A model generated the notes under the pieces. That model worked only from the letters and a program-made list of their open reading frames with translations. It was not told where the DNA came from and ran no database searches. The position numbers and the translations under genes were made by a program. A DNA stretch of 64,000 bases from Pirellulales bacterium (GTDB lineage: Bacteria; Planctomycetota; Planctomycetia; Pirellulales; JADZDJ01), in NCBI GenBank assembly GCA_963738835.1, contig CAVTYH010000001.1, forward strand, positions 592,071 through 656,070. Direction: 5' to 3'. Shown here piece by piece: positions 30,675-62,781 of the stretch (position 1 is the first letter of the stretch; each line of letters opens with the position of its first letter).

Positions 30675-30706
30675 AGATGTAATTCGAGATAAAAGCATCA
30701 GAAGTT

Positions 30707-40549: not shown

Positions 40550-40594
40550 CGAATGACGAAATTCGAGGTCCAACGAAATCCGAATCGTCCCTTG

Positions 40595-41053
40595 TCATTT
40601 CTTCCCCAGCTTTCGCTGCTCGGCAAAAAACTGCGTCAGCAGCCGGCCGCATTCGTCCCCCAAGACGCCGCTGACAATTTGGCACTGGTGGTTCAATCGC
40701 CGGTCGGTTAGCAGTTGATACAGTGTGTGGACCGCGCCCGCCTTGGGATCGGTCGCGCCGTACACCACCAGCGGAATTCGGGCCTGCACAATCGCCCCGG
40801 CGCACATTGGGCAGGGCTCCAGCGTCACGTACAGCGTGCAGCCTTCCAGTCGCCAACTGCCCAGGGCTTCGGCGGCTTGCGTGATGGCGATCATTTCGGC
40901 ATGGGCCGTCGGATCGTGCAATTGCTCCCGCTGATTGTGCGCCGCCGCAATCACGCGCTGGCCATGCACAATTACTGCTCCCACCGGCACTTCATTTTCC
41001 GCCAAGGCCGCTTCCGCCTCCGCCAACGCCATTCGCAGGAAGAATTCGTGCAT
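40595..41053 (-). CDS. tadA: tRNA-specific adenosine deaminase
   Basis: [10 protein letters not shown] (HAE) and [11 protein letters not shown] (PCxxC) deaminase zinc motifs. 152 aa, intact. Confidence 0.9.
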
Positions 41054-41267
41054 ACAACATTTCCGGAAACGTCAACGCACGAAATCGCACAGGACCGCGG
41101 GTGCCGGACGGAAATGTGCGCGGAATTCAACGTTCGATGCTACGATTCAATACGTTCCATAAAGTCCATCTGACCAACTTACTGATCATCGTATCGCACG
41201 GCCATTGGCAGTCCAAATCGGTCTCGATTAGAGTAGTGAAATCTCCTTACCAGGCAAAGACTCCCGC

Positions 41268-42275: not shown

Positions 42276-42324
42276 GAATTCTCCGAAGTGAATTCTACAG
42301 ATTCTCCCAGGTGAATGAATCCGT

Positions 42325-44204: not shown

Positions 44205-44569
44205 GAACGGATATAAAGTGTGAAGGGTCGATCAATAAAGGCGCGCTACCATTTCTCATTCCTAGCCGCAACCGTCAGGCTGGGCCGCGACCGTCAGCGA
44301 GCGGTGTTCCGCCCGTTTTAATCTGCAATTCAACGGGCGACTGCCCGCATCTACCAGTTTGCAATTCTACCCGCCACGCACTGCGCTTGTTTGCCATTTC
44401 GCGGCGGTCGAGCTTCCGCCGTGTGGCCGGGGTCGAGGCTGCCGAGCCCCCGGGGGTTTTGCGTACAGCTGGGGGCTCCCTTCGGTCGACCCCAGCCACC
44501 CAACGCCCGACCGGTCAGCTTCCCGTTTGCCGGCCTCTGGACGCTACCACCCCCTCTGTCGGAAACTAT

Positions 44570-44598
44570 TTGACAGATGCCTAACGTAACTATACACT
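44570..44598 (+). promoter_or_regulatory. putative sigma70-type promoter of the DUF1559 gene
   Basis: TTGACA (44570-44575) - 17 nt - TACACT (44593-44598), about 140 nt upstream of ATG 44738. Confidence 0.35.
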
Positions 44599-44737
44599 GC
44601 AACTTGCGCGTAGGGCGCGAGCGTCACGGGGCAGACGCGGTTGGGGGGGGAGTTTTGCTTTTGGGAACGGTTACATCCCGCTCGGGATGATCGTGGTTGT
44701 CTCATTTTTTTCATTCTGTTCTTGCAGGAGGTGGAGT

Positions 44738-46014
44738 ATGTCTAGTTCTGGTGTGCACAAGCGAAAAAGCGCGGCTTTTACGCTTGTCGAATTGTTGGTG
44801 GTCATCGCCATCATCGGCGTGTTGATCGCCCTGCTGCTGCCGGCCGTGCAGGCGGCTCGTGAAGCAGCCAACCGCAACTCGTGTCAAAACAACATGAAGC
44901 AAATCGGCCTGGCGCTGTTGAACTTCGAAGACAAGCGCCACTGCTTGCCGCCGATCACCACCACCGGGCAGGGTGCCGACGTTACTGGCGACTCGCCGGG
45001 CAGCACCGCAGGTGGAAACGCCACCCAGGGCCCCGGTACCGTCAACAGCGCTCAGGCGGGTTATGGCTGGATGGTGCAAATTCTGCCCGACATCGAAGAA
45101 TCGACGCTGTATCAATCGATCGTCACCAATTCGGCGAAGTTCACGATTCCGGCCTTTGATGTGAAGGTGGTGGCCTCGGGCATTGGCTCCACCACCCCCG
45201 CGCCGAATAACCCCCATGCCGCGACCGTCACCATCAGTGGCTTTGTGTGCCCCAGCTTTGCGGGGGACAAAACCATCGGCATCGATCCGGCAGCTACGGC
45301 TTTGGGTGTTCCCGCCACGTATAGCACGGGCGCTTTCGCCGCTCCCAGTCCGCCGCCAGGCATCACCAACTACATGGCGATTGCCGGCACGCACTTCTTT
45401 GCCCAGGCCACGCCGACGGCAACCCAGCCGGCGACCAATAAGATGACCGACCCCACCACGAACAATGGTGGCATGCAGTACAAAGGCGCCGCGTTCGATA
45501 ACGGACGTAAATTGGCGGCTCTGACCGATGGTACCTCGAAGGTGCCTTTGGTGGCGGAAAGCAAAGAGCGTGTGCAGGGCACTTGGTACGACGGCACCAC
45601 CAGTTGGGTTGTGGGCGTCGCCATGTGCAAGATAACGGCTCGGCCGTTAGTCCGCCGGCCCAAGTGACCTCGACGGCGAATCAGTTCACCGTGGGGGGTA
45701 TTCCCCTGCCGGCCGGTCGCTTGTACATCGGCACCAACGCCACTTCGACCGGTGGCGCGGGCCACGCTTTGAACTCAGGGCCCAGCACGGCGAACCCGAA
45801 TTCCCGCTATTTGCTGGCGTCGCAGATCACTAACCCCTTGATGACACCGCAAGTGTCACGGGCCTGGGGTCCCAGTAGCGATCACTCCGGCGGCATCGTG
45901 AACCACTTGTTTGGCGACGGCCACGTGGACGGTATTCCCGATGGCATCGAGCCGAACTTGTACCTGTGGATCGTCAGCCGTGCCGGCGGCGAAGCCACAG
46001 GCGGCACGAACTAA
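44738..46014 (+). CDS. DUF1559 / H-X9-DG-type protein with prepilin-like N-terminus; 1 frame change in this assembly
   Basis: aggaggtggagt precedes ATG 44738. [50 protein letters not shown]-terminal [17 protein letters not shown] in ORF 45583..46014. Confidence 0.85.
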
Positions 46015-46036
46015 CCTGAGCAACAGTTCTTGATAG

Positions 46037-46075
46037 CCCGGCGAGACGCACCAGCGTCTCGCCGGGCTTTTTTTG
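46037..46075 (+). terminator. rho-independent terminator
   Basis: Perfect 13-bp stem cccggcgagacgc / gcgtctcgccggg with loop acca, followed by cttttttt. Lies 23 nt after the stop at 46014. Confidence 0.8.
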
Positions 46076-46121
46076 TTGACGGCGCTGAGACCAAGGCCCG
46101 AATTCGTGAGAATCGCCTGCT

Positions 46122-46351
46122 GATCTTTCCAGTGGTGGCTCACCAGTGCTGGCTCAAAAAGTGGGACGGGTGGCCCGGACAAGTGTCCGCTCCGGCGGAG
46201 CCGCAAGAGGCTCTTGGTCAGGATTTGGAGCCCTCAGATAGGTAACGATCTGTGAACGCTTCTTGTCGCGAGCCGCGACCCCGAGACGCCTGCGGCTTGA
46301 TCGGGGCCACCCAGCCCCGACGATCTTTCCCGCCGTGGCTCAAAAAGTGGG
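46122..46351 (+). repeat. pair of ~30-44 bp direct repeats bracketing ~155 bp
   Basis: gatctttcc-agtg-gtggctca[ccagtgctggctca]aaaagtggg (46122-46165) versus gatctttcc-cgcc-gtggctcaaaaagtggg (46322-46351). Confidence 0.7.
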
Positions 46352-46352
46352 C

Positions 46353-46381
46353 TTGTATTTTATACATTGGTTCACTATAAT
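46353..46381 (+). promoter_or_regulatory. putative sigma70-type promoter upstream of fcl
   Basis: TTGTAT (46353-46358) - 17 nt - TATAAT (46376-46381) in a locally AT-rich patch, ~390 nt upstream of ATG 46770. Confidence 0.3.
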
Positions 46382-46397
46382 AAACGCTGGAACTTAA

Positions 46398-47731
<1,334 letters not shown>

Positions 47732-47738
47732 TACATGA

Positions 47739-47840
47739 CCCGACCGTATTCGGTCGGGAAGCAAAGGGCTTGAATTGTGTAAATGACAGAAGTTGCGAGC
47801 CAATTGAATATAAATCCACTTCCGACCGAATACGGTCGGG
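47739..47840. repeat. ~100-bp element with 22-bp terminal inverted repeats, each arm itself a hairpin
   Basis: Left arm cccgaccgtattcggtcgggaag (47739-47761). Right arm cttccgaccgaatacggtcggg (47819-47840), the reverse complement of the left with a 1-nt indel. Each arm is CCGACCG-N4-CGGTCGG. The arms flank an AT-rich 57-bp core. Sits between the fcl stop (47731) and the gmd start (47855). Confidence 0.8.
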
Positions 47841-47854
47841 CTAGGTGAGGCCCC

Positions 47855-48874
47855 ATGCCCCGTCGCGCATTCATCACCGGCATTACCGGCCAAGACGGCT
47901 CTTATCTGGCGGAGTTTCTGCTGGAAAAGGGCTACGAAGTGCACGGGCTGGTGCGCCGCGCCAGTTCGTTCAACACGGGCCGCATTGATCATTTGTATCA
48001 AGATCCGCACGAAGCCAGTCCCCGGTTGCGGCTGCATTTTGGCGACTTGACCGATAGCGGCAGTATCGCGAATTTGATTCTCGACCTTGAGCCCGATGAG
48101 GTTTACAACCTGGGCGCGCAAAGCCACGTGCGGGTTTCTTTCGATCAGCCACTGTACACCGCCGACGTGGTGGCCACCGGCACGCTGCGGGTGTTGGAAG
48201 CGGTGCGGCAGTTAGCACGACGGAAAGACGTGCGGTTCTATCAGGCGGCCTCCAGCGAAATGTACGGCCAGGTGGCGGAAACGCCGCAACGGGAAACGAC
48301 GCCGCTTAGGCCGCGCAGCCCGTATGCCTGCGCCAAGGTGTTCGGTTTCCATCAGACGGTGAACTATCGGGAGGCCTACGGCCTGCACGCCAGCAACGGC
48401 ATTTTGTTCAATCATGAATCGCCGCGGCGGGGCGAAACGTTTGTGACCCGCAAAATTACCCGGGCCGCCGGGCGAATTCGCGAAGGCCTGCAACAGAAAA
48501 TCTATCTGGGCAATATCGAAGCCCGGCGCGATTGGGGTTTTGCCCGCGATTTTGTCGAGGCCATGTGGCTGATGTTGCAGCAACCGCAGGGGGACGATTA
48601 CGTGGTGGCCACCGGCGCAGCGCACTCTGTGCGCGAATTTCTGGCGCTGGCCTTTAAGGAGCTGGGACTCGATTGGCAGCGGCACTATGCCGTGGACGAG
48701 CGGTATTTTCGGCCCTGCGAAGTCGATTTGCTGCTGGGCGAAGCCTCGAAAGCGAGTGAAAAACTCGGTTGGCGACCGCGAACTACGTTCCCGGAACTGG
48801 TGCGGATGATGGCGCAGCACGACTGGCAATTGGCCAGGCAAGAAAGAATGTTGGCATCCCGGCAGGCAGCATGA
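47855..48874 (+). CDS. gmd: GDP-mannose 4,6-dehydratase
   Basis: [58 protein letters not shown]. Intact 339 aa. Confidence 0.95.
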
Positions 48875-48906
48875 GACTGCGCGTCATGGATGATCGACGC
48901 AGCAAG

Positions 48907-49882
48907 TCAGTAGTTGGGCGTCGGAGCGCGGTAGGCGGCCAAATCGATCGAGCGGAACCACGCGATCGTTTTCTGCAAGCCGTCGCGAAGTTTGATGGTC
49001 GGTTCCCAGTTCAAGTTTTTACGCGCCAGGGTGATATCGGGGCGGCGCTTCGCCGGATCATCAGGCAGCGGTGGTTTGTAAGCCAGCTTCGATTTGGAGC
49101 CGGTCAGTTCGATCACCAATTTGGCCAGTTCCAGAATGGTGAACTCGCCGGGATTGCCCAGATTGATTGGTCCGATGCAATCGTCGGGAGCGTTCATCAG
49201 TCGCACCAATCCTTCGATGAGGTCGTCGCGGTAGCAAAACGAGCGCGTCTGGCTGCCATCGCCGTAAATGCTGATGTCTTCTCCGCGGAGCGCCTCGCGA
49301 ATGAAGTTCGACACCACGCGGCCATCGAACGGGTGCATCCGCGGCCCATAGGTGTTGAAGATGCGGGCGATGCGTATGTTCACACGGTTCATGCGGTGGT
49401 AATCCATGAACAGCGTCTCGGCGGCCCGTTTGCCTTCGTCGTAGCAGGCGCGGGGCCCCAGGGTGTTGACGGCGCCGCGGTAGGTTTCGGGCTGCGGATG
49501 AACTTCCGGATCGCCATACACCTCGCTGGTGGAGGCTTGCAAGATTTTCGCCCGGCAGCGTTTGGCCATGCCCAGCAGATTGATACGCGCCGATGACGGA
49601 AGTTTTGATGGTCTTGATGGGATTGTACTGGTAGTGTCCGGGCGCGGCGGGGCAGGCGAGGTTGTAGATTTCGTCGACCTCGAGCCAGAGCGGATGAATG
49701 ACGTCGTGCCGCAAGAGCTCGAAATTCGGCCGGCCCAGCAAATGCGAGACATTGGTTTTCTGGCTGGTAAAGAAGTTGTCGACGCAGACCACATCGTGCC
49801 CCTCTTCGACGAGCCGTTCGCACAAATGCGAGCCCAAAAAGCCGGCGCCGCCGGTCACCAAAATGCGTTTATGTCCAGCCAC
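48907..49882 (-). CDS. uxs: UDP-glucuronate decarboxylase (UDP-xylose synthase); 1 frame change in this assembly
   Basis: [35 protein letters not shown] (ORF 49061..49882), then [28 protein letters not shown] (ORF 48907..49794). Confidence 0.9.
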
Positions 49883-50692: not shown

Positions 50693-51679
50693 ATGAACAC
50701 CGACTTTTCGGCAATGATGGACGAGCCCGTATGGAAGCACATGGGCTACGACCTCGTGCAAATCAAGCAAAACGCTACGGTGGGCCAAGCGCTGGAAAGC
50801 ATTCGCGAAAATCCAGCGATTGGCCGAATCATCTATTTTTATGTGGTTGACGACGACGGAAGATTAGTTGGGGTTGTGCCCACCCGGCGTCTGCTTTTGA
50901 ACGCCTTGGAGACTCCTGTCGATCAAATCATGGTGCGGGAAGTCATCACGGTTCCGGAAGCGGCGACCGTGCTCGAGGCTTGCGAATTATTCGCGATGCA
51001 CCGCTTGCTGGCATTTCCGGTGGTCGACCACAAGCGGCGCATTGTCGGCATCGTGGACGTAGAGCTGTACACGAAACAGCGCGGCGAGCTGGAAGCGGCC
51101 GAACGCAATGAGGAGCTGTTTCAGCTCATCGGCGTGCATCTGGCAGAAGCGCAGCAGTCCAACCCGGTCACCGCCTTCCGCAGCCGCTTTCCTTGGCTGC
51201 TGTGCAACATCGCCGGTGGCATTGCGGCTGCGTTTCTGTCGGGTTTATTCAAAGACGAATTACAGCGAGTTGTGGCCTTAGCGATGTTCGTGCCCGTGGT
51301 GCTGGCGTTAGCCGAGAGCGTCAGCATTCAATCGGTGAGCTTGACGCTGCAGATTCTGCACGGACAAAGGCCCACGATTGCAGCGCTGATAGCGAAGCTC
51401 CGCCGGGAGTTTTTCACCGGCATCCTGCTGGGCGTTGCCAGCGCCCTGTTGGTGGCCGTCGTGGCGCTGGTGTGGCTGGGCAACGCGAGAGTTGCGATTT
51501 GCCTGCTCGTCGGAATTAGCACCGGCGTAACGGTAGCGGCACTCATTGGTGTAGCGATGCCCAATTTGCTGCGCATTCTGCGGCGAGATCCGCAAGTGGC
51601 GGCGGGCCCCGTGGCCTTGGCCTCGGCCGACATGCTCACGCTATTGGTTTACTTCATGCTGGCTCGTTGGATTGCATAG
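50693..51679 (+). CDS. mgtE: MgtE-family magnesium transporter (CBS pair + MgtE TM domain)
   Basis: CBS-type VVDDDGRLVGVVPTRRLL and FPVVDHKRRIVGIVD. TM domain RFPWLLCNIAGGIAAAFLSGLF..FVPVVLALAESVSIQS. Confidence 0.85.
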   Translation: MNTDFSAMMDEPVWKHMGYDLVQIKQNATVGQALESIRENPAIGRIIYFYVVDDDGRLVGVVPTRRLLLNALETPVDQIMVREVITVPEAATVLEACELFAMHRLLAFPVVDHKRRIVGIVDVELYTKQRGELEAAERNEELFQLIGVHLAEAQQSNPVTAFRSRFPWLLCNIAGGIAAAFLSGLFKDELQRVVALAMFVPVVLALAESVSIQSVSLTLQILHGQRPTIAALIAKLRREFFTGILLGVASALLVAVVALVWLGNARVAICLLVGISTGVTVAALIGVAMPNLLRILRRDPQVAAGPVALASADMLTLLVYFMLARWIA

Positions 51680-51715
51680 TTTCGACGGCTTCAATAAAGG
51701 TTGAATGAATCATGC

Positions 51716-51765
51716 TTGACGCACGCCTCAACAAACGTTACAACAACGTACGTCAAATCGACGTA
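51716..51765 (+). promoter_or_regulatory. putative promoter plus inverted-repeat operator upstream of the BlaI-family gene
   Basis: TTGACG (51716-51721) - 17 nt - TACAAC (51739-51744), followed by the perfect dyad TACGTC-N5-GACGTA (51749-51765), 25 nt before ATG 51790. Confidence 0.3.
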
Positions 51766-51789
51766 TATTACCTCCAAAGGGCCAGAATA

Positions 51790-52182
51790 ATGTCGAAACA
51801 TCTCCACGGATTGGGAAGTTTGCAGACCGAGGTGATGGAAATCATCTGGCGACAAGAAGAAGCGACGGTCGCACAAATGGTCGAGGCGATCGGCAAAAAA
51901 CGGCCGGTCACCTACACCACCGTTCTGTCGGCGGTGCAAAAGCTCCACCGAAAAGGCTGGCTAAAATTTCGCTCCGCCGGCCGAGCTTATATCTATTCTG
52001 CTACGCGAAATCGAGAAGAAGTCGGCGGTCGCACGCTACGCGACCTGCTGCGGACGGCATTCGGAGGCAACCCGAAGTTATTGCTGGCGAGTTTGCTGGA
52101 AGACACTCGCTTGTCGGACCAAGATTTGACCGAGCTGCGGAAACTTATCGATCAACGTCGAAAGGGGGTTCGTCATGAATAG
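51790..52182 (+). CDS. BlaI/MecI/CopY-family transcriptional repressor
   Basis: Winged-helix LQTEVMEIIWRQEEATVAQMVEAIGKKRPVTYTTVLSAVQKLHRKGWL..YIYSA. The stop overlaps the BlaR1 start. Confidence 0.85.
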   Translation: MSKHLHGLGSLQTEVMEIIWRQEEATVAQMVEAIGKKRPVTYTTVLSAVQKLHRKGWLKFRSAGRAYIYSATRNREEVGGRTLRDLLRTAFGGNPKLLLASLLEDTRLSDQDLTELRKLIDQRRKGVRHE

Positions 52183-54523
52183 TGTCCTGTCGTGGTTGCC
52201 AGCAGATAGTTGGCAGCGGCTATTGGTGGATGCTTTGTGGCAAAGCACGGTGATTGGCGCCATCGGTTGGCTGGTCGCTTGTTTTTTAGTTCGGCAAGTG
52301 GCGGCCAAGTCTTGGGTGTTGCTGCTGACGGTTACCAGTTGCTTGCTTGCGCCGCTGGCCAGTGTTGCCGCAAGACAAGGCGGAATCGCGCTATTCGACG
52401 GTGCCACGCAAGAAGTCGCCGCCACGGCATCGTCGACGAGCCCGGCGCCTAGCACGCTTTCTGACTCTGATCTTGACAAGATTGACGGGCCACAATTCAT
52501 TAGCGTCGTCAACGGGGCCGAAAGTGTCGCGCCGGAAGTACACCCGTCGCCAAATCCGGCGGAGGTTCCGCCGGCTTTCTCTGCAGTCGGGCAAAAAATC
52601 GAGGCGTCGAAGCCGAACACGGACTGGCCGTTGCTCAAACTTTATTTCTTCGACTGGATTGGGCTCGCATGGCTGGCGGCCTCCGGTCTTCTGGTTGTGC
52701 GCTTGGCCGTTGGTTGCGCGGGGGCGCTGCGGCTCATCCGACAAGCTCAACCATGCAACGACGATACACTGCTGCGAGCGGTTGAGGCGGCGCGAGAGCG
52801 ACTAACACTAAAAACTCGGCCGATGCTGCTGGTCAGCTCTCATATTTCCACGCCAATGGTGTTGGCAATTGGCCGTCCGCGACTGTTGATTCCGGAAATC
52901 GACAGAACCGTGGATTGGACACCCGCTTTCACCCACGAACTTGCGCATGTGGCCCGAGGAGACGGCTGGTCCCGCTTGTGGGTCGAGTTCGTTGCGATCG
53001 CCCTGCCACTTTCGCCGCTGGTATGGCTTTTGCGCCGATCGTTCCGCATTGCTTGCGAAGAAGCGTGCGACGATTGGGTCATTGCGACCGGCACCGAGCC
53101 AAGCGAGTACGTGAGCGCACTAGCAAGTTGGATCAATCGGCCGCGCCGAGTCGTTCCTCTGCCGGCAATCGGCATGTCGACAACGAAATCGCGATTGCTA
53201 CGGCTGTTGTCTTTGCGCGAAAGGCCGGTCGTGAAAAACAGCCGCTTCAAACGCATCGCTTGCGCCACGGTGGCTTTGGTTTTGATCGCGGGATTAGCTG
53301 TCGCACAAACGAAATCTTCCCGGCCGGAATATACCGTACCTCCGACCAAATCCATTCAACAAAGGATCGAAGATAAGCCTCCCGCCGACCCGCCTGAAGA
53401 GGTTGGCCAGAATGCAATCGCCAACGATCCACTGCTGCCGCTTTATGGAAAGCGTATGGCGGAATACGAGGAATTGCTTACGATTGAAAAGGCAAAGCTG
53501 GCCGATCTGAAAGCCGGCAAGCCCAATTCTGACGGGTCAACCGAAGAATGGCTACGCAATGAAATACAACGATATGAAGAGGCCATCAAGTCGTACAAGG
53601 AGCGCATCGAAAAGCGCAAAGCAGAACTCAGATCACGCACCAATGAGGAAGTCAAAGAGAAGCAAGCGACCAAGAGTCCGTTGCCTCCCTACGATATCGA
53701 ACCGCCCGACGTCATCACGATCGACGCGATTAGCCTAGTCCCGAAAAAACCGTTTCGATTGGCACCGGCCGACAAAGTGAAGCTCGCCGTGGAAGGCACG
53801 CGCCTCGATGCCCCGATTTCCGGTACGTTCCAGGTTGACAGCACGGGCGAGATCGTGCTTGGACCCAGCTACGGCTCTGTCAAAATCGCGGGTCTCACGC
53901 GTGTTGAAGCTCAGGAGGCGGTGACCGAGCAACTCAAAGAGACGCTCGTCAATCCGCAGGTGGCGCTGATCATCGACGAGGCACGATTGACCAGCGGCAT
54001 CACCGGTCAGCATCTGGTAGGGCCGGATGGAATGGTGAACCTTGGGATCTACGGCAGCGCTTATGTCGCGGGCTGCACCATACCGGAGGCATGCCGCGCT
54101 ATCGAAAAACAACTTGCTGGCGCATTTCGCGAGCCTAAAGTTTCCGTCGACATCTATGCCTATAACAGCAAGGTCTATTACGTCATCAGCACTGGCGAGC
54201 GTGGCGATAATATCCAGCGCTTTCCGATCACCGGCCATGAAACGATTCTGGACGCGATCGCGCAAGTTAAGGGGGCGGGCGATTTGGCTAGCAAAAACAT
54301 TTGGATCGCTCGTCCGAAGCCTATCGGCGAAGACCAAAACCTGCGGTTCCAGTGGGATCAAATCTCCGCCGGCGACGACTCAACCAATTACCAGGTGCTG
54401 CCCGGCGATCGAATTTTTATCGCGGAGAAAGACAAAACCGAAAGGCCGGAGCCGCGGCCGAAAGGCTGCGCAGCTCAATTCGAACTCGACGGACAAAAAT
54501 CCGATGAATCGCGAAGCCCCTGA
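52175..54523 (+). CDS. BlaR1-type M56 peptidase signal transducer fused to a coiled coil and a Wza-like polysaccharide-export (Poly_export/SLBB) domain
   Basis: Intact 782-aa ORF. N-terminal TM helices and zinc motif FTHELAHVARGD (HExxH). Coiled coil ~53400-53650. C-terminal LPPYDIEPPDVITIDA..VSVDIYAYNSKVYYVIS..IQRFPITGHETILDAIAQ..YQVLPGDRIFI is paralogous to the gene at 15457..16560. Confidence 0.85.
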   Translation: MNSVLSWLPADSWQRLLVDALWQSTVIGAIGWLVACFLVRQVAAKSWVLLLTVTSCLLAPLASVAARQGGIALFDGATQEVAATASSTSPAPSTLSDSDLDKIDGPQFISVVNGAESVAPEVHPSPNPAEVPPAFSAVGQKIEASKPNTDWPLLKLYFFDWIGLAWLAASGLLVVRLAVGCAGALRLIRQAQPCNDDTLLRAVEAARERLTLKTRPMLLVSSHISTPMVLAIGRPRLLIPEIDRTVDWTPAFTHELAHVARGDGWSRLWVEFVAIALPLSPLVWLLRRSFRIACEEACDDWVIATGTEPSEYVSALASWINRPRRVVPLPAIGMSTTKSRLLRLLSLRERPVVKNSRFKRIACATVALVLIAGLAVAQTKSSRPEYTVPPTKSIQQRIEDKPPADPPEEVGQNAIANDPLLPLYGKRMAEYEELLTIEKAKLADLKAGKPNSDGSTEEWLRNEIQRYEEAIKSYKERIEKRKAELRSRTNEEVKEKQATKSPLPPYDIEPPDVITIDAISLVPKKPFRLAPADKVKLAVEGTRLDAPISGTFQVDSTGEIVLGPSYGSVKIAGLTRVEAQEAVTEQLKETLVNPQVALIIDEARLTSGITGQHLVGPDGMVNLGIYGSAYVAGCTIPEACRAIEKQLAGAFREPKVSVDIYAYNSKVYYVISTGERGDNIQRFPITGHETILDAIAQVKGAGDLASKNIWIARPKPIGEDQNLRFQWDQISAGDDSTNYQVLPGDRIFIAEKDKTERPEPRPKGCAAQFELDGQKSDESRSP

Positions 54524-54602
54524 ACCGGCATTGTCAGGCGAGAAACGGATCGATGATCGGATAAAAACACCGCCGACGTTGGCCGAGCCGTATTGATGGC
54601 TT

Positions 54603-54621
54603 TCCGACCGAGACGGTCGGA
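54603..54621. terminator. hairpin between convergent BlaR1-like and ftsH genes (possible bidirectional terminator; same family as the 47739/47819 hairpins)
   Basis: TCCGACCG-AGA-CGGTCGGA, a perfect 8-bp stem. TTT precedes it on the plus strand. No strong U-tract for either direction. Confidence 0.35.
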
Positions 54622-54643
54622 CTATGTGCCGACCACTTACCAC

Positions 54644-54664
54644 TCACTACTCACTACTCACTAC
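54644..54664. repeat. heptamer tandem repeat (tcactac x3, plus a partial copy)
   Basis: tcactac at 54644, 54651 and 54658, then tcacaa. Lies immediately 3' of the reconstructed ftsH stop on the minus strand. Confidence 0.9.
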
Positions 54665-56706
54665 TCACAATGAGCCTTCCGCGGTTTCGCGGGGAATGGG
54701 TGCTTCCACAGCTGGTGGGCCGTGGCGTTTGCGTTCGGCGTCGGTGCCGGGGACGATCAGGGGGGCGGTCGAGGTTTCCTCGATGATCTCTTTCAGCTCT
54801 TCCGAGTCGATCACCTCCCTCTCGATCAGCCGCTTGGTCAAAGCTTCCAGGCGCAGTTTTGCGGGCTTCCAGAATCTGCCGCACCTTCTCCATCGATTCG
54901 TCGATGATGCGCTTCACTTCTTCATCGATTTCGCGGGCCGTCTGCTCGCTATGAACGCGGGGGCTTGTGATTTCGCCGTTGGCGGCCAGAAACGGCGAGC
55001 GGTTGCTTTCGCGATAGTTCACCCGGCCCAGGTGGCTCATGCCGTAGTCCATGACCATGGTCGGGCGATGTCGCTGGCGCGTTCCAGGTCGTTTTGGGCA
55101 CCAGTCGAAATGTCGTTGTAAATCATTTCTTCGGTGATGGTGCCCGCCAGCAGCACTTGGATGCGGCTTTCCAGTTCGCTTTGCGTCATTAGGTAGCGGT
55201 CGTCTTCGGGCCGCTGCATGGTATAGCCCAAGGCTGCCAGACCGCGGGGGATGATCGAGACTTTGTGCACTGGATCGGTATTCGGCAGGCTGTACGCAAC
55301 CAGTGCATGGCCTGCTTCGTGATAGGCGACGCGCTGTTTTTCGTCGACGTGAATCACCCGCTTGCGTTTTTCCAGGCCGGCGGTCACGCGTTCGACGCCT
55401 TCGTTAAATTCCTTCATGCCGACGGCGGTTTTGCTGTTTCGCGCGGCCAGCAAAGCGGCCTCGTTGACCAGGTTCGCCAAATCGGCGCCGACGAAACCGG
55501 AGGTAATGCTGGCGATTTCTTTGAGATTCACCGTGCTATCGAGCTTCACGTTTTGTACATGCACTTTCAGAATTTCCTCGCGTCCGCGCACGTCGGGCCG
55601 ATCGACCAGCACATGACGATCGAAACGGCCCGGCCGCAGCAATGCTGGATCAAGCGTTTCCGGCCGGTTGCTGGCGGCCAGCACAATAACACCGCTGTTG
55701 GTGTCGAAGCCATCCATTTCCACCAGCAGGGCGTTGAGCGTTTGTTCGCGTTCATCGTGTCCGCCCACAACGCTGCTGCCGCGGGTTTTGCCCAGGGCAT
55801 CGAGTTCGTCGATGAAGATGATGCACGGGGCTTTATTTTCTGCCTGCTGGAACATGTCTCGCACGCGGGCCGCACCGACACCGACGAACATTTCGACAAA
55901 GTCGGAGCCCGAAAGGCTGAAGAACGGCACGCCCGCCTCGCCGGCGATGGCTTTGGCCAGCAGCGTTTTGCCGGTTCCCGGCGGACCGACTAGCAGCACG
56001 CCTTTGGGAATGCGCCCGCCGAGGACCTGATAGCGTTCCGGGCTGCGAAGGAATTCGACCACTTCGCGCAGCTCATCGACTGCTTCGTCGATGCCGGCTA
56101 CGTCTTCAAACGTGATGCCGATATCTTCTTGGGCGTACATTTTGCCGCGGCTGCGACCAAACGCCATTGGGCTGCCGGCACCGCCCAATCGGCGGAGCAT
56201 AAAAAAGAACACCACGATAAACAGTCCGGTCAGCACCAGCATCGGCATGTAAGCCCTCAAAGAGCTGGGACCGGACTCGTAATCGAACTTGACGCCATTT
56301 TCTAGCAACAACTTGCGTAAATCGCCGGACGTGTCGTCGCTGCCGCCTCGATTCGCGTGAAAGTTTACAACTTCCGACTTTGAATCGGCGGTTGTACGGG
56401 TCACTTTGCCGGTGATGTCATAGGTGCCAAGCTCGATATCGGTCGGATTTTTGTAAGTGACTTGCAGCTTATGGCCCTCAGGACCCTCTTCCGTGGTGAT
56501 GCCCGGCCTTTCGATTGAATCAGGTTTACGAAATCGCTGGCCTTTAGCGGATAGGCAGTGTCCTGATGCAGCCAACCGACGACCAGCAGAACCGTGATGC
56601 CGACCGCCAACAGATACCAGATCGAGTTATTGGCGATCGGCGTGTTTTTGCGTTCCGGGGTCGGCTTCGTGTTCTGCGGTTTTTTCTCTGGCGTGTTGCT
56701 ATCCAT
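54665..56706 (-). CDS. ftsH: ATP-dependent zinc metalloprotease FtsH; at least 3 frame changes in this assembly
   Basis: N-terminal TM (ORF 56401..56706). Walker [14 protein letters not shown], Walker [23 protein letters not shown] (ORF 55037..56575). MVMDYGMS.. (ORF 54654..55058). The true C-terminus [28 protein letters not shown]-stop is in a third frame ending at 54665. Confidence 0.9.
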
Positions 56707-56908
56707 ACGCGATCGACCTGGCGAATTGAATGGTGGAAAGGGTCTTTAGTTCATCGTATGTCGCTCATGCGGCTCGTACAACCGTTCGATCGGCGGCGGC
56801 ATAGTTGCGAACGGCAAACTAGGCAAAATCGGCACGATTGCCGTTCGGGTTGTGGGGTAATCGGTGCGGCTTTAGAATCGCCGATGGAGTGAGCCTCGCT
56901 GATAACTC

Positions 56909-56965
56909 TACGCAATCCGCAAGCCCAGGGGTTGCGGGTACCGTCGCCCCGATGGTCCCTGGGCT
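56909..56965 (-). repeat. dispersed palindromic element, copy B (inverted relative to copy A)
   Basis: The reverse complement reads agcccagggaccatcggggcgacggtacccgcaacccctgggcttgcggattgcgta. Arms GCCCAGGG / CCCTGGGC. Ends 15 nt before the dxr ATG. Confidence 0.7.
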
Positions 56966-56979
56966 TGAATGTGCTGTCC

Positions 56980-58143
56980 ATGTCTCTAACCGCCAAAAAC
57001 ATTGCCGTCCTGGGATCGACCGGCTCGATTGGTGTAAGCACGTTGGAAGTGGTGGCAGCGAGCGAGAGAAGATTGAAACCGATGGCGCTGGCGGCTCGTA
57101 ACAGCACGCAGATTTTATTGGAACAAGCTCGACAGTTTCGGCCACGTTGGATCGTGGTGACCAATGCTGAAGCGGCGGCCAGTCAGGATTGGAGCGATTT
57201 GCCGCGCGAAACGGAATTGCTAATCGGACCGGAATCGCTCGCAAAAATCGCAGCAGTGCCGGAAATCGATTGCGTCGTGGCCGCTATCGTCGGCGCCGCT
57301 GGACTCGAAAGCACCTGGGCCGCGTTGGAAGCCGGGAAAGAGGTCGCTTTGGCTAACAAAGAGACGTTGGTCATGGCCGGCCCACTGGTCATGCGATTGG
57401 CGGACCAGACCGGGGCCAAGATTTTGCCCATCGACAGCGAACATAGTGCAGTGTTCCAGTGCTTGCAGTCCGGCCGGCGGGAGGAACTTAAGCGGATTGT
57501 GCTGACCGCTAGCGGCGGGCCATTTCGCAATCACACCGTAGAACAATTGGCCCGTGTGAAGGTGGAAGAGGCCTTGGAGCATCCCACCTGGGACATGGGT
57601 CCCAAAATCACGATCGATTCCGCCACGATGATGAACAAAGCCCTGGAAATTGTCGAAGCCCGGTGGCTGTTCGATTTGGTGCCGGAGCAAATCGACGTGG
57701 TGATTCATCCGCAATCGATTGTGCATTCAATGGTCGAATTCATCGATGGCTCGACGATTGCACAGCTCAGCTCGCCCGACATGCGGTTGCCGATTCAGTA
57801 TGCTTTGTATTATCCGGAGCGACGGCCAGGCATTTCGCAGAAAATGGATTTCACGAAGTCGCAGCGACTCGATTTCGAACCGGCCGATCCGGTAAGGTTT
57901 CCCGCCTTGCAACTGGGCCAACAAGCGGCCCATAGCGGCGGCACCACCGGGGCCGTGCTGAATGCGGCCAACGAAGAGGCCGTCCGCAGTTTTTTGGGCG
58001 GCGAGCTAGATTTTGTCGAAATCGTGCCGGTTTGCCGAAGTATTGTTGAACATCACACGTTTGAGGCTCAGCCCACGCTTGCGCGGCTTTTGGAAGTCGA
58101 TCGTTGGGCGCGTCAGGAGGTCACACGTTGGGTATGCACTTGA
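56980..58143 (+). CDS. dxr: 1-deoxy-D-xylulose 5-phosphate reductoisomerase
   Basis: ATG 56980 [65 protein letters not shown]. Intact. Confidence 0.95.
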
Positions 58144-60343
58144 TTGCAGCACTGTCGTGGTTTTTGGAGCCCGCTCATTGGCTCGTTGTTTTGCAGGTGG
58201 CTGCAGGACTCGGTTTCGTGATTTTCGTGCATGAGCTGGGGCATTTCCTCGTTGCCAAAGCTTGCGGCGTAAAGTGCGAGAAGTTTTACCTCGGCTTCGA
58301 TATCTACGGTTTGAAAATCGCCAAGTTTCAGTGTGGCGAAACCGAATACGGCATCGGCATTTTGCCACTGGGCGGTTATGTGAAGATGCTTGGGCAAGAC
58401 GACAACCCAGCCCGCATGGCGGAAGAAACCCGCGCGCGAAGTTGCAATCGGCGGGCACCACCTACTCTGCTGCCACAGGTGCCAACTTTGAAACCGCCGA
58501 GCACGCCCCGCCCCTCACTCACGGCGACCTGCCGCCGGAACCAGTTTCTGATCTGCATGTCCCGTACGATCCTCGCAGTTACATGGCCCAAAGTGTACCC
58601 AAACGGATGGCCATCATTTCCGCTGGTGTCATTATGAATGTCATTTTCGCGTTCATTATGGCCTCGGTGGCGTATTGCATCGGCGTTAAAGAAACACCGT
58701 GCATTGTGCGGGCCGTCGTGCCTGGCGGAGCAGCGTGGCAGGCGGGACTACAATCGGGGGATGTTGTGAAACGGATTGGCAAAATCAAAAACCCACGCTT
58801 CAAAGATTTGCAAACCGGCGTGACGCTTGGCGACTTGGAACATGGCGTGGAATTCGAAATCTATCGCCCCATCACTGAAAAAATGTTCACTGTCGTGTTG
58901 CACCCCGATAAAAGTCTGGGCGTGCCAATGATCGGTGTCGTCGGTCCTTGGAAACCAGAGTTGATTGATGAAAAAGACATCAAACCAACGCTGAAGTTCT
59001 CGCCAGCATGGCAGGCAGAACCGAATTTTGAACCCGGCGACCGATTTGTGCAAATCAATGAAATGCCAATCAAAGATCAAGTCGATGTGCAACGTGCCTT
59101 GGTTCGCCACGTGGACGACAAGATTGCAGTTTCCGTCCAGCGAGCAACCAAAGATAAAGACGCGAGCAAGCCGCCAACCGAAGAGCCGCCAGTAGATAAG
59201 GAACTTGCCGGAAAACCAGTGGAGATTTCAGTTGAGCCAACTTCGATGCGTGATTTTGGGCTCGTGATGGACATGGATCCGATCTCCGCAGTGCAGCCCG
59301 ATTCTCCAGCGAAAGCAGCCGGATTAGAAGCTGGCGACAAGATCATCTCGATCGACGGACAGCCCGTGGGTAATCCAATCACACTGCCCGACCGGATGCG
59401 CCGCGCAGGGCTGGAAGGAAAGACGCTCAATCTCGAGATCGAGCGGAAGTCGGAGTCGAAGCCTTTAACATTGCAAATTACTCCACGCGTGCCGGAATCT
59501 GCGGACGAATTGCTTCCGACCAACCCGCTGTCGGCCCCTGCGCTGGGAATCGCCTACAAAGTTTGGACAAAAGTTGCAGCGGTAACTGCCAACACTCCGG
59601 CCGCTGATGCCAAATTGCACCCGGGTGATGAAATCATTTCAGCAAAATACCTTGCACCGCCGAAAAAAGACGGCGCTGCGAAAGAGGATGCAAATCCGAC
59701 GGAATCCTCTGAACTTACGAAAGTCGATTTCGATGGCAAAGATCCCGCCTGGCCGTATTTCGTTTGGGAAGTGCTGACGTTTGCCGATCCTGAAGCCCGC
59801 TGGGAGTTGGAAGTGCGCAACGGCAATGAGACTCGCAAGATTGAGTTGCAGACGGTGGAATTAAAGGACGATGCTGGTCGGGTGCTGCATACCCCTGCAC
59901 GAGGCTTCCTGTTTCAGCCACTATTTACGGTGCATGTTGCCGATTCATTTGCCTCGGCCGTACGGCTTGGTGGACGGGAAACGCTCGACAATTTACTGCT
60001 TGTCTATCGCTTTCTGCAAAAAATCGGCCAGAAACAGATTTCAGTAAAGCTGCTCGGCGGACCGGTGGAAATATTTCGACAGGCAGGCCGGTCGGCGCAG
60101 CAAGGCTGGTCCGACTTTCTGTTGTTCCTCACGATGCTTAGCGCCAATCTGGCCGTCATTAATTTTCTCCCGATCCCCGTGCTCGACGGCGGGCACATGG
60201 TATTTTTGGCCTACGAGCTGATTCGCGGCAAACCGGCCAGCGAACGGGTCATGGTGGCGTTCACTTATGCGGGGATGATTTTTATTCTGTCGCTGATGTT
60301 GTTTGTGTTGGCCCTAGATACGGGGCTGATTTCTCGTCGCTAG
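58134..60343 (+). CDS. rseP: RIP metalloprotease RseP (M50 site-2 protease with PDZ domains); 1 frame change in this assembly
   Basis: [15 protein letters not shown] (HExxH) in ORF 58104..58637. PDZ regions and [15 protein letters not shown] in ORF 58262..60343. The break lies in the cgcgcgcg run near 58431-58438. Confidence 0.9.
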
Positions 60344-60422
60344 ATCAAGCTGGGACTGTCGTCACACGGTTGCCAATGCATCGATATCGCCGAAGCTCAC
60401 TTCCTACGATTCAAGATCTGTA

Positions 60423-60689
60423 ATGATGCCAGCGCCGAAAGCCATGTCCAAAAAGACGGATCAAAAGAAACGCAAACCGATTCGCATCCCGGCTGATTTC
60501 CGCCAGGCCCTTGGCAGAAGCAAAAAGGCGGCCGAGACCTTCCACGGTTTCAGCCCCAGCCACAAGCGGGAATGCATCAGGTGGATCATCGAAGCGAAGC
60601 GGCCTGAAACCAGACAAAAACGCATTCATTCCGCTATCCAGTGGCTGGCCGAAGGGAAATCGCAGAACTGGCGGGATGAACGAAAGTAA
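60423..60689 (+). CDS. YdeI/OmpD-associated family protein
   Basis: FHGFSPSHKRECIRWIIEAKRPETRQKRIHSAIQWLAEGK matches the family's C-terminal AKxxETRxxR pattern. 88 aa. Confidence 0.6.
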   Translation: MMPAPKAMSKKTDQKKRKPIRIPADFRQALGRSKKAAETFHGFSPSHKRECIRWIIEAKRPETRQKRIHSAIQWLAEGKSQNWRDERK

Positions 60690-60806
60690 TCTGCCTTCCA
60701 AGCGATCTTGATTTGAGTTCCATCGGCGGGGTAGATTGCGGCACCCTCGCCCGGCCATGCACGGGTGTGGAATTCGAATTACGGCTGCGTTGGAAAGGAT
60801 GCCACC

Positions 60807-61871
60807 ATGCCTATTCGCCTGGCGGATTTGGCCCATATTGTCGACGGGCACGTGCTGGGCGACGGCACGCGCCTGATCGCGGGGGCCAATGCCCTGAATG
60901 CCGCCGGGCCAGACGACATTACGCTGGTCGATTCTGCCGATAAGGTGCATCGTTTGGCACGCAGCCAAGCCGGCGCAGTTGTGGTGCCGCGAAGTTTAGG
61001 ACCGCTCGATCGTCCGGTCATTCAAGTCGGCGACGTGCATGCGGCCTTTTCAGACATCGTTTGCTATTTTCGGCCGCCGCGAGAAAAACCGCGGGCTGGC
61101 GTTCATCCGATGGCGATGGTTGCCTGGACGGCCAAAATTGCCCGTGGGGCGACCATTCATCCCGGTGCCACAATTGGCGACGACGCGGAAATTGGCCCTG
61201 GCACCGTAATTCATAATGGGGTTCACGTGATGGCCGGGTGCCGGATTGCCGATCACGTGACCATTTTCCCCGGCGCGGTGCTTTACGAAAACACGCGTGT
61301 TGGCTCGCGCTGCATCATTCATGCTGGCGTTGTGCTAGGCGCTCACGGTTTCGGCTACAAGTTCCTCGATGGCAAACATGTGCTGTCGTCGCAGTTAGGC
61401 TATGTGGAATTATGTGCCGACGTGGAAGTCGGCGCCGGCAGCACGATCGATCGCGGCACTTACGGCGCGACGCTGATTGGCGAGGGCACGAAAATCGATA
61501 ACCTCGTGATGATTGCCCACAACTGCCGCATCGGTAGACACAATTTGATTTGTTCTCAAGTCGGCGTGGCGGGTAGCACCTCGACCGGCGATTATGTGGT
61601 AATGGCTGGCCAGGTCGGCGTGCGCGATCATGTTCACATTGGTACGAAAGCCGTGCTTGGCGCAAAAGCAGGTGTCTCTAGCGATGTGCGCGAAGGCGTT
61701 CACATGCTGGGTACTCCGGCGGTACCGGAGCGCGAACAAAAGCTGCTCTTCGCTTTGACTTCAAAGCTACCGGAGATGCGCAAGCAACTGAAGGAACTAC
61801 AGCGGCAAATCGATGAACTGACTCATAGCCCGATCGAAGCTCGCGACAACACCCGAAATGAAGCCGCCTGA
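60807..61871 (+). CDS. lpxD: UDP-3-O-acylglucosamine N-acyltransferase
   Basis: ATG 60807 MPIRLADLAHIVDG. Long hexapeptide-repeat beta-helix, HNCRIGRHNLICSQVGVAGST. C-terminal helix. Confidence 0.9.
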   Translation: MPIRLADLAHIVDGHVLGDGTRLIAGANALNAAGPDDITLVDSADKVHRLARSQAGAVVVPRSLGPLDRPVIQVGDVHAAFSDIVCYFRPPREKPRAGVHPMAMVAWTAKIARGATIHPGATIGDDAEIGPGTVIHNGVHVMAGCRIADHVTIFPGAVLYENTRVGSRCIIHAGVVLGAHGFGYKFLDGKHVLSSQLGYVELCADVEVGAGSTIDRGTYGATLIGEGTKIDNLVMIAHNCRIGRHNLICSQVGVAGSTSTGDYVVMAGQVGVRDHVHIGTKAVLGAKAGVSSDVREGVHMLGTPAVPEREQKLLFALTSKLPEMRKQLKELQRQIDELTHSPIEARDNTRNEAA

Positions 61872-62781
61872 GGAAACAGTTCGATCGACCTTTGTTGCTT
61901 CATCAGCCCGTGTCGGCATCGTTGCAGGCTGGGGACGGTTTCCGATTGTCGTGGCCGAATCGCTCAAACGGCAGGGGTTTCAGACGTATTGTGTGGCGTT
62001 AAAAGATCACGCCGATCCGGCGCTGGAGCGAATTTGCGATGATGTGCAGTGGACCGGTCTTGCGAAACTTGGCCACGCCATTCGTTATCTGCGTCACAGC
62101 GGAGTGCGCGATGCAACATTGGCCGGTAAGGTCTTCAAAGTGCGGTTGTTTCAGCGCGGGGCATGGATCAAACATCTGCCCGACTGGACGTGTATCCGCA
62201 CGTTCTGGCACCATTTTGTCACGACGAAAAAGGATCGCAAAGACGATACATTACTATTGGCGATCGTAAACGCCTTTGCAGAAGCTGGAATTGCGCTTCT
62301 TCCCGCGACCGATTATGTTCCGGAGCTGCTCGTGAAATTCGGACAACTCACACGGCTAGGTCCCACAAGGGCACAGCAAAGGGACATTGAGTTTGGCTGG
62401 CACCTGGCAAAAGAAATGGGCCGCCTCGACATTGGCCAAAGCGTGGTCGTGAAGGATCGCGCGTGTTTAGCCGTCGAAGCAATCGAAGGCACCGACGAGT
62501 GCATTCGCCGGGCGGGGCAGCTGTCACCGGCGGGCGGATTTACCGTGGTGAAGGTCGCCAAGCCGCAGCAAGACATGCGTTTCGATGTACCCACCATCGG
62601 TGTCCGAACGCTGGAAACGATGTCAGCCGCCGGCGCGAAGATGCTAGTGGTTGAAGCCGGCAAGACGATTCTCGTCGACGAACCGCAATTTCTTGAATTC
62701 GCCGATTGGCACAAGTTGATTGTCGTCTCCCTCGACAGCGCGGCATCGTCTGAACGCCTCTTGCGTGATGATGCTGCTTAG
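61858..62781 (+). CDS. lpxI: UDP-2,3-diacylglucosamine pyrophosphatase LpxI (DUF1009)
   Basis: RVGIVAGWGRFPIVVAESLKRQG, GQSVVVKDRACLAVEAIEGTDECIRRAG, VVKVAKPQQDMRFDVPTIG. Overlaps the lpxD stop. Confidence 0.85.
   Translation: MKPPEETVRSTFVASSARVGIVAGWGRFPIVVAESLKRQGFQTYCVALKDHADPALERICDDVQWTGLAKLGHAIRYLRHSGVRDATLAGKVFKVRLFQRGAWIKHLPDWTCIRTFWHHFVTTKKDRKDDTLLLAIVNAFAEAGIALLPATDYVPELLVKFGQLTRLGPTRAQQRDIEFGWHLAKEMGRLDIGQSVVVKDRACLAVEAIEGTDECIRRAGQLSPAGGFTVVKVAKPQQDMRFDVPTIGVRTLETMSAAGAKMLVVEAGKTILVDEPQFLEFADWHKLIVVSLDSAASSERLLRDDAA

Follow-up and report, generated by a model that had tools for sequence, protein, structure and literature searches.

A 64,000-nucleotide stretch of a Pirellulales genome (contig CAVTYH010000001.1 of assembly GCA_963738835.1, positions 592,071 to 656,070; hereafter the window) encodes, at 51790..54523 on the forward strand, a BlaI-family repressor and a BlaR1-type M56 protease whose sensor is a module derived from the Wza-like proteins of outer-membrane polysaccharide export (OPX). 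This identification is supported by Pfam searches, a structure model, predicted topology and the conservation of both the gene pairing and a candidate operator, and it upholds the proposal of an initial annotation of the sequence that the penicillin-binding sensor has been replaced by an exporter-derived module. The fusion is present in about 100 proteins. We describe below the two genes, the origin and distribution of the fusion, and a mechanism by which it may act.

The BlaI and M56 genes

The repressor gene, read from the ATG at 51790 to 52182 on the plus strand, encodes a protein of 130 residues with no cysteine. It matches the winged-helix family Penicillinase_R (PF03965) in Pfam with an E-value of 1.5e-28 and a score of 99.9 bits against a cut-off of 22.6, and is thereby placed in the BlaI/MecI family; it lies under every equivalog cut-off in NCBIfam, those for CopY, BlaI and MecI included. 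A copper repressor of the CopY/TcrY type was considered and ruled out, as the protein has no C-terminal Cys-rich metal hook and scores 63.9 bits against TIGR02698, for which the cut-off is 121.95.

The 3′ end of blaI overlaps by 8 nt the start of an adjacent, co-oriented open reading frame (ORF) of 782 codons (52175..54523, plus strand), which has no frame break. The Pfam results bear out the coordinates and domains first proposed for it: an intact ORF with a BlaR1/MecR1-like N-terminus, overlapping the stop of the repressor gene. Peptidase_M56 (PF05569) is matched at residues 160–324 (E 1.1e-23; 84.3 bits, cut-off 31), and Poly_export (PF02563) at residues 525–600 and in a second stretch (E 6.7e-20; 71.5 bits, cut-off 28). 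In the same search, neither the penicillin-binding domain PF00905 nor the Pfam SLBB family is found in the protein. The NCBIfam model blaR1_generic reaches 38.6 bits against a cut-off of 400 and covers residues 178–326 only, and residues 610–754 give sub-threshold matches to NCBIfam models of PEP-CTERM-system, EpsY and Wza-type exporters. From the M56 domain, the gluzincin motifs, the predicted topology and the adjacent blaI gene, we assign the protein to the broad BlaR-like M56 family. The transpeptidase or class D-like domain found at the C-terminus of a bona fide BlaR1/MecR1 beta-lactam sensor is absent, and the C-terminus folds instead as an OPX module.

The membrane-embedded protease domain

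Residues 1–380 (52175..53314, plus strand) form a BlaR1-like membrane and M56 gluzincin domain, delimited from Pfam, hydropathy and charge, an AlphaFold2 model and Foldseek comparisons. Its helices span residues 13–37, 42–68 and 152–190 and are followed by a re-entrant catalytic region and a last transmembrane (TM) helix at 357–378. In the hydropathy profile, TM helices appear at approximately 20–39, 46–66 and 158–182, with a hydrophobic catalytic region at 268–287 and the last TM segment at 361–378. The loop of 89 residues at 67–155 is acidic, disordered and predicted to be periplasmic; the loops at 185–225 and 290–358 are rich in lysine and arginine. Hydropathy and the positive-inside bias predict that residues 379–782 are periplasmic.

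The AlphaFold2 model, calculated from an alignment of 83 sequences, has a mean predicted local distance difference test score (pLDDT) of 81.8, with all folded parts at high confidence. Compared with the PDB by Foldseek, its N-terminal part matches the cryo-electron microscopy structures of Staphylococcus aureus BlaR1 (8exq, 8exp and 8exr; E 2e-6 to 3e-4), with a TMt of 0.61 to 8exr_A. A phmmer search of the PDB sequences with the N-terminal 400 residues returned no match, so that the kinship with BlaR1 is visible only through the Pfam profile and the fold. In the published BlaR1 plan, four TM helices and a re-entrant helix are combined with an active site on the cytoplasmic side and a C-terminal domain outside the cell (PMC9834060), and the model predicts the same plan here, with the C-terminal domain extracytoplasmic. 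Hydropathy, the Lys/Arg bias, AlphaFold2 and Foldseek thus agree in predicting a periplasmic and not a cytoplasmic Wza-like part, as the initial annotation had presumed.

The zinc site (52934..53071, plus strand) comprises H254-E-L-A-H258, D263 and E295-x-x-x-D299. The first motif lies in the run FTHELAHVARGD at residues 252–263, and the second reads E295EACD299. Across 22 fusion proteins, H254, E255, H258, D263 and D299 do not vary, and E295 is conserved in at least 90%. The spacing of 41 residues from H254 to E295 equals that between H201 and E242 of S. aureus BlaR1 (PMC9834060).

The last TM helix (53243..53308, residues 357–378, plus strand) resembles an internal signal peptide, with an n-region RFKR, an h-region IACATVALVLIAGL and a c-region A375-V-A377/Q378, the slash marking the putative cleavage point. 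A375, A377 and Q378 are each at least 90% conserved in the 22 fusions, and of the 30 closest fusions listed, 28 have the motif LA-x-AQ after the last helix; it is found also in close M56 relatives that bear other sensor domains. In S. aureus BlaR1, the signal peptidase SpsB cuts at the equivalent position and sheds the sensor, and ligand binding has been proposed to shield the site (PMC9834060). By analogy, turnover or shedding at AxA/Q probably operates in the present protein too.

The stalk and the OPX-derived module

The periplasmic part begins with a disordered linker, continues through helices at 408–498 and the module proper, and ends in a disordered tail. The helical stalk (residues 404–498; 53384..53668, plus strand) consists in the AlphaFold2 model of helices 408–416, 420–446 and 457–498, with pLDDT of about 90–98, in agreement with the coiled coil of some 90 residues recognised earlier between the M56 domain and the exporter module. 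Pfam assigns residues 380–505 to no credible family, giving one sub-threshold match of coiled-coil type only. In relatives, the last TM helix and the module are from about 27 to more than 800 residues apart, and in many only about 30–45. The coiled coil is therefore a trait of one branch and not of the fusion family as a whole.

The module itself (residues 503–754; 53681..54436, plus strand) was delimited from Pfam, NCBIfam, phmmer and Foldseek and comprises the Poly_export (PES) domain twice, followed by an SLBB beta-grasp domain; in the AlphaFold2 model it is a beta-rich unit at 513–751. By phmmer, residues 607–754 align to residues 93–233 of Wza (domains D1–D2) and to residues 49–183 of WzaB. 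Foldseek matches of the C-terminal part in the PDB are WzaB 9n9a (E 2.7e-8), 7xff/7xfd, and the Escherichia coli Wza entries 2j58 and 9r60. In OPX proteins, it is the SLBB and PES domains that face the polymer (PMC9603273).

What the module has lost is as clear as what it has kept. Being internal, after the M56 domain and a TM helix, it has no Sec signal peptide or lipobox of its own. The free-standing exporters end in a helix of 35 residues; its place is taken by a Pro/Glu/Lys-rich tail that extends to the stop codon (54437..54523, plus strand), has pLDDT below 50 for residues 755–781 and is predicted to be disordered. The tail (residues 755–782) is unrelated to the outer-membrane-spanning helix of Class 1 proteins, the GfcC domain of Class 2 or the porin-docking tail of Class 3. 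Alignments and AlphaFold2 models indicate that the lack of lipobox and C-terminal helix is general among fused modules. Their tails are of low complexity, and only P0003, P0004 and P0008 retain a terminal ...NF or ...TF. Of 116 alignment columns at least 90% conserved in free-standing OPX proteins, a set made up of the 120 best matches and hence biased towards similarity, 72 are kept and 22 lost in the fusions, the lost ones including a cysteine that is nearly invariant in the free-standing proteins. The description of the module as a complete Poly_export/SLBB unit thus stands as regards the PES-PES-SLBB domains but fails as regards a complete exporter, the lipoprotein signal and C-terminal helix being gone. 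WzaB is monomeric unless lipidated, and its ring formation depends on lipidation (PMC12819527). Since the fused module cannot be lipidated and is tethered to an M56 domain that is probably a dimer, it is unlikely to assemble into a Wza-like ring of eight.

Relationship to free-standing OPX proteins

The window contains a free-standing OPX lipoprotein gene (15457..16560, plus strand), recognised by tblastn, its lipobox and a conserved C-terminal tail, in an exosortase and exopolysaccharide (EPS) locus. The initial annotation had held the fused module to be a paralogue of this exporter, and the comparison bears this out. The segments matched by tblastn are 49–61% identical, with a summed E-value of 1e-42; the frame-repaired protein is 59.6% identical to the module over about 258–260 residues, and the run VSVDIYAYNSKVYYVI is common to both. 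At the DNA level the two are about 68% identical and the longest shared word is 14 nt, a divergence which confirms that no assembly duplication is involved. The OPX gene is broken by two compensating shifts, −1 near 15880 and +1 near 16101, and the FtsH gene that adjoins the pair (54654..56575, minus strand) is split near 55040–55058. Because the essential FtsH gene is broken as well, and a related locus (L004) shows like damage, these breaks are more likely to be assembly indels than signs of gene decay.

Used alone as a query, the fused module finds as its best matches free-standing Pirellulales OPX proteins of about 350 residues, at 50–60% identity; over all comparisons with free-standing Pirellulales OPX proteins, the identity is 47–60%. 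These carry a lipoprotein signal (...GC/RTWWGL) and, after the SLBB domain, a conserved tail of about 50 residues, DHxIAxDS...ERxFGTTLLGxQTxQ...NF. The AlphaFold2 model of one orthologue, P0118, shows the tail as a helix of 35 residues at 310–344, and its best Foldseek matches are full-length Wza. In the Pirellulales OPX proteins, two Poly_export units and an SLBB domain precede a helix often ending in ...NF; Pfam reports only Poly_export for them, and by fold they resemble full-length Class-1 Wza. The partner-binding motifs of WzaB, a loop with Arg106-Arg107 and a C-terminal Phe-Phe, are not conserved in the alignments even in the free-standing Pirellulales proteins.

In a distance tree of the modules (neighbour-joining, midpoint-rooted), the fused modules form long-branched groups apart from a short-branched free-standing clade. 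The window fusion is nearest to P0005, and the window OPX protein groups with orthologous free-standing proteins. As the fused modules group together and the window OPX protein with its own orthologues, the tree indicates that the fusion is an old one, not recently copied from the OPX gene of the window.

Distribution of the fusion

In a word-indexed search of 5.8 billion proteins, PF05569 and PF02563 occurred together in approximately 31 cluster representatives, at 35–50% identity over the full length, and 68 more fusions came from the best 150 matches of an exhaustive phmmer search against 1.84 billion representatives. In total, about 100 proteins have both modules, nearly all with HExxH. 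They come from JGI, ENA, NCBI and Logan assemblies and have the same domain order in a single ORF. The named sources are Pirellulales and Aeoliella, and two further fusions are from metagenome-assembled genomes labelled Pirellulales and Planctomycetaceae in GTDB. In the genome-collection scan that gave these two (L039 and L043) as its only extra fusions, free-standing OPX genes predominated, and the taxa of that collection (Pirellulales, Planctomycetaceae, Thermoguttaceae and others) mostly describe the free-standing OPX family and are not a census of the fusion.

This distribution settles the question of whether the fusion could be an artefact, either an indel joining two genes in an error-prone assembly or a gene in decay. 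The concern is a real one in that the assembly does break two clearly functional genes, those for the OPX protein and FtsH, and in that the fusion is split into two ORFs on the related long-read contig L004. The latter two ORFs, P0045 and P0180, were considered as a natural two-gene version and rejected; on the same contig blaI is frameshifted and the RseP gene is in fragments, and we therefore treat the split as an indel artefact. Against an artefact, the identical domain order recurs in one ORF in about 100 independent proteins, the catalytic and fold residues are invariant, and the FtsH gene lies only about 130 nt beyond the stop codon, so that nothing is missing downstream. We regard this explanation as refuted.

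The nearest M56 domains without an OPX module bear CarboxypepD_reg, LRR, WD40, TPR or TonB_C domains. The M56 part thus behaves as a chassis that takes up different sensor domains by shuffling. Some fusions are more elaborate: P0243 carries SecDF_P1_head between its M56 and OPX modules, four Poly_export stretches are seen in P0243 and likewise in P0002, P0300 and P0005 contain DUF11/CLIPPER-like repeats, and P0011 and P0017 have in common a C-terminal extension of about 150 residues.

Conserved pairing and a candidate operator

A blaI gene lies directly upstream of the fusion in all 11 loci with upstream sequence (the window, L001–L005, L043 and L086–L089). The two genes usually overlap by 4–8 nt, and the BlaI orthologues of the other loci are 50–75% identical to that of the window.

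A −35-like TTGAC of the blaI promoter (51716..51720, plus strand) is invariant in nine aligned orthologous promoters, namely those of the window and of the eight loci described next; a generic scan for promoters and terminators called no sigma-70 consensus promoter at blaI and gave nothing informative. Some 30–35 nt downstream of TTGAC is a candidate BlaI operator (51734..51765, plus strand), made up of a perfect dyad TACGTC-N5-GACGTA (51749..51765) and, 15 bp upstream and abutting it, a weaker dyad AACGTT-N5-AACGTA (51734..51750). The perfect dyad recurs exactly or with one mismatch at the same place 5′ of blaI in L001, L003, L004, L005 and L086–L089; the footprints lie at 9516–9547 in L001, 5795–5826 in L004, 9490–9521 in L005, 9558–9589 in L086, 9556–9587 in L087, 9575–9591 in L088 and 9574–9590 in L089. 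The more distant L002 and L043 have different palindromes of the TAC...GTA type at this position. The layout of promoter and dyads is that expected of an autoregulated BlaI/MecI-type operon, and the element remains an operator candidate. One-mismatch copies occur in L058 (9581) and L061 (4133), upstream of blaI genes of related M56 systems whose tblastn matches to the query cover the M56 part only, and three more are found in L038, L045 and L056.

Genomic neighbourhood

The exosortase/PEP-CTERM polysaccharide region of the window extends over 10897..49000. It includes an EpsI-like DUF3485 gene (10897..11538, minus strand), an exosortase gene (13981..14889, minus strand), the OPX gene, a NusG paralogue that may be a locus-specific antiterminator (18282..18839), a PEP-CTERM protein gene (38083..39471) and, as the last sugar-nucleotide gene, one for a GDP-mannose dehydratase (47855..48874). 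Also present are genes for an aminotransferase (DegT), an epimerase, PIG-L, Bac_transf, a PglD-like acetyltransferase and GT4. No co-polymerase was recognised among the ORFs scanned in this region, and 16560..18180 holds short unassigned ORFs only. The pair begins about 3 kb past the last of the sugar genes, at a distance of 36 kb from the OPX gene.

None of the ten homologous loci (L001–L005, L043 and L086–L089; L043 was examined for blaI pairing and the operator only, not gene by gene) has an EPS, OPX or exosortase locus around the pair. Six loci, the window, L001, L004, L005, L086 and L087, share instead at least part of another gene order: MgtE/CBS upstream, blaI, M56-OPX, and then FtsH (minus strand), Dxr, RseP, LpxD and LpxI. 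L088 and L089 share a different position, and L002 and L003 differ again. In the window the conserved order spans 50693..62781, with Dxr and RseP identified by Pfam and LpxD and LpxI from ORF position only, and in several lineages the pair sits among envelope-biogenesis housekeeping genes. With no EPS locus among the homologous loci and no second copy of the operator in the window, the proximity of the pair to the EPS locus in the window looks incidental. At the start of the window, a gene for a C-5 cytosine DNA methylase (69..1151) precedes an ORF with a GIY-YIG nuclease domain (1422..2042); the two may be a restriction-modification or Vsr-like pair.

Proposed mechanism and alternatives

We propose, with moderate confidence, that the pair is an autoregulated two-gene BlaI/BlaR1 (M56) signalling module with an OPX-derived periplasmic input in a Pirellulales-type planctomycete. 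The BlaI-like repressor would bind TACGTC-N5-GACGTA, located downstream of the −35 element and upstream of the blaI start codon, shutting off the blaI–M56 operon together with any distal genes that have the site. The M56 protein would reside in the inner membrane, with its four TM helices, its re-entrant catalytic helix and a zinc site facing the cytoplasm, and, beyond the last TM helix, would present the helical stalk and the PES-PES-SLBB module to the periplasm. Stripped of its lipid anchor and C-terminal helix, the module would most likely bind a periplasmic glycan or, with lower likelihood, a protein partner of exporters such as a co-polymerase. Occupancy would shift the position or conformation of the module and may alter the exposure of AxA/Q to signal peptidase, as in S. 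aureus BlaR1; once activated, the protease would cleave BlaI and the targets would be derepressed. The ligand class, the transmission of the signal, the cleavage of BlaI and any regulon beyond the operon we infer by analogy. A more specific version would make the OPX-derived domain a checkpoint sensor of periplasmic polysaccharide traffic, which binds nascent or accumulating polymer, or the free face of a co-polymerase or porin at which a true OPX protein would normally sit, and whose occupancy would control AxA/Q exposure, M56 activation and BlaI cleavage. If true, it would be the first case of an exporter domain turned into a signalling receptor, and polysaccharide export would feed back directly on transcription, but we consider it unlikely.

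Several points weigh against the proposed mechanism. The BlaI residues that align by eye to the cleavage site of the S. aureus repressor, N101/F102, are different (S-L), and Tyr261 of BlaR1 has no conserved equivalent in the fusion proteins. The stalk is absent in many relatives and so is not essential to the mechanism. A second copy of the operator was not found in the window at up to two mismatches, where about one would be expected by chance, nor an exact copy in 80 loci of the genome collection (approximately 1.17 Mb, most of it flanking free-standing OPX genes); the output may therefore be autoregulation only, or lie elsewhere in the genome. Glycan binding by the module is suggested by what is known of the family, and the computational analysis identified no ligand, partner or target gene.

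The initial annotation went further and suggested that the module monitors the EPS export of its own locus (about 10–49 kb), through nascent polymer or by docking to the export machinery, with BlaI cleavage feeding back on the EPS genes. The paralogy of the module with the OPX protein of that locus is in keeping with this idea, as are the sugar-nucleotide genes, which reach about 48.9 kb and so come within some 3 kb of the pair. In L001, L086 and L087 a single epimerase gene is found 1–6 kb upstream of MgtE, and the terminal ...NF or ...TF of P0003, P0004 and P0008 recalls the porin-binding Phe-Phe tail of WzaB. The window protein, however, has no lipobox, tail helix or terminal NF, and in the many fusions with a short linker the module is held some 30–45 residues from the membrane. 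None of the ten homologous loci is an EPS locus, the synteny being with housekeeping envelope genes; the operator is not repeated in the EPS locus of the window or, exactly, in the 80 collection loci; the tree shows an old, separate fused clade and not a local duplication; and the EPS locus has a NusG-like regulator of its own. With the outer-membrane-targeting elements lost as well, a coupling of repressor cleavage to EPS export or its apparatus is unsupported, as is direct control of the neighbouring EPS locus. We judge this reading unlikely.

A slightly better case, though still rather an unlikely one, can be made for a module that senses imported or environmental polysaccharide, for example the algal or plant glycans on which planctomycetes feed, with the pair controlling utilisation genes and not EPS genes. 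Such a sensor would have the same architecture and periplasmic location as in the mechanism that we favour, and the lack of linkage to EPS loci would be accounted for. Polysaccharide uptake into the planctomycetal periplasm is known, and the closest M56 relatives have carbohydrate- or surface-binding modules (CarboxypepD_reg, LRR and TPR), suggesting a combinatorial set of sensors. Linkage to sulfatase or glycoside-hydrolase clusters is nevertheless not seen beyond sulfatase-family genes near L002 and L003, and such genes are expected to be common in these genomes. It is also conceivable, but very improbable, that signal peptidase constitutively frees the module at A377/Q378 as a soluble periplasmic OPX-like protein, leaving the M56 part alone to signal or be turned over. 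The n-, h- and c-regions with the conserved AxA/Q after the M56 domain would suit this, and the shedding of the BlaR1 sensor by SpsB at the same position is documented (PMC9834060). In BlaR1, though, shedding is a turnover route and not a signalling route (PMC9834060). The motif is present also in relatives with unrelated sensors, and is thus a property of the M56 chassis and not of its OPX cargo, while the invariable presence of a BlaI partner speaks for a role in regulation. An autoregulated signalling pair with a periplasmic, probably glycan-binding input is the reading that we retain.

Comparison with known systems

BlaR-like M56 proteases are a very large family of one-component-like transmembrane sensors. 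A survey from 2026 comprises about 15,000 M56 proteins in 254 architectures; some 6% carry a beta-lactam-binding domain, about 96% of the genes adjoin a blaI gene, and the signal is unknown for almost all of the BlaR-like proteases (PMC13492132). Poly_export is not among the nine common architectures given there (PMC13492132), an OPX survey paper makes no mention of M56-OPX fusions (PMC9603273), and the M56-Poly_export combination was not found in the searchable literature. As far as that literature shows, the earlier statement that no example of this wiring has been characterised holds. The wiring is unusual in that an exporter-domain sensor is undescribed; a sensor for something other than beta-lactams is not in itself exceptional, given the 254 architectures and the low share of beta-lactam-binding domains. 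We conclude that the M56-OPX architecture is real, conserved and undescribed, and that it belongs to a known, highly modular kind.

The recognisable ancestry of the sensor, a polymer-facing part of an exporter, allows a concrete and testable guess at the ligand class, and the conserved candidate operator is a direct handle on the regulon. Should the guess of a glycan be true, the system would reveal a way for a diderm bacterium to monitor the polysaccharide in its periplasm, and an exporter-derived receptor would join the known repertoire of signalling domains; should it be wrong, the fusion would still be a clean, well-delimited case of domain shuffling on the M56 chassis in planctomycetes.

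The closest parallels are BlaR1/BlaI and MecR1/MecI of S. aureus and Bacillus licheniformis. As in these, the repressor gene lies upstream of the M56 gene and is probably translationally coupled to it, H-E-x-x-H...E-x-x-x-D is present with identical spacing, four TM helices and a re-entrant helix are predicted together with an extracytoplasmic C-terminal domain, and a palindromic candidate operator of the TAC...GTA type overlaps the promoter; as in BlaR1, a signal-peptidase-type site follows the last TM helix. The fusion differs from BlaR1 and MecR1 in having no penicillin-binding sensor of transpeptidase fold, but PES-PES-SLBB on a stalk; in the lack of a linked beta-lactamase or PBP2a gene; in its host, a diderm planctomycete; and in the loop equivalent to EL1, which has 89 residues and is disordered. 

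Atypical systems have been characterised in Clostridioides difficile (CenIR; PMC13492132) and Pseudomonas aeruginosa (PvmSR; bioRxiv 10.64898/2026.08.03.742534). Mycobacterial BlaIR is cited as another in the CenIR paper, and a PetR/PetP-type pair of Synechocystis is described as a protease-based copper switch (bioRxiv 10.1101/2020.07.31.226407). The present pair shares with all four the combination of an M56 protease and a BlaI-like repressor with no beta-lactam-binding domain. The atypical BlaIR systems regulate things other than beta-lactam resistance, and their sensors are short, unstructured or of other folds, in contrast to the OPX-derived module found here.

With OPX proteins, Wza and WzaB among them, the module shares Poly_export (PES) and the SLBB beta-grasp domain, the part that aligns to Wza D1–D2 being residues 607–754. 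Unlike the exporters, it has no signal peptide, no lipobox and no tail that could span the outer membrane or dock to a porin; an M56 protease anchors it in the inner membrane; and it is not encoded in a polysaccharide assembly locus.

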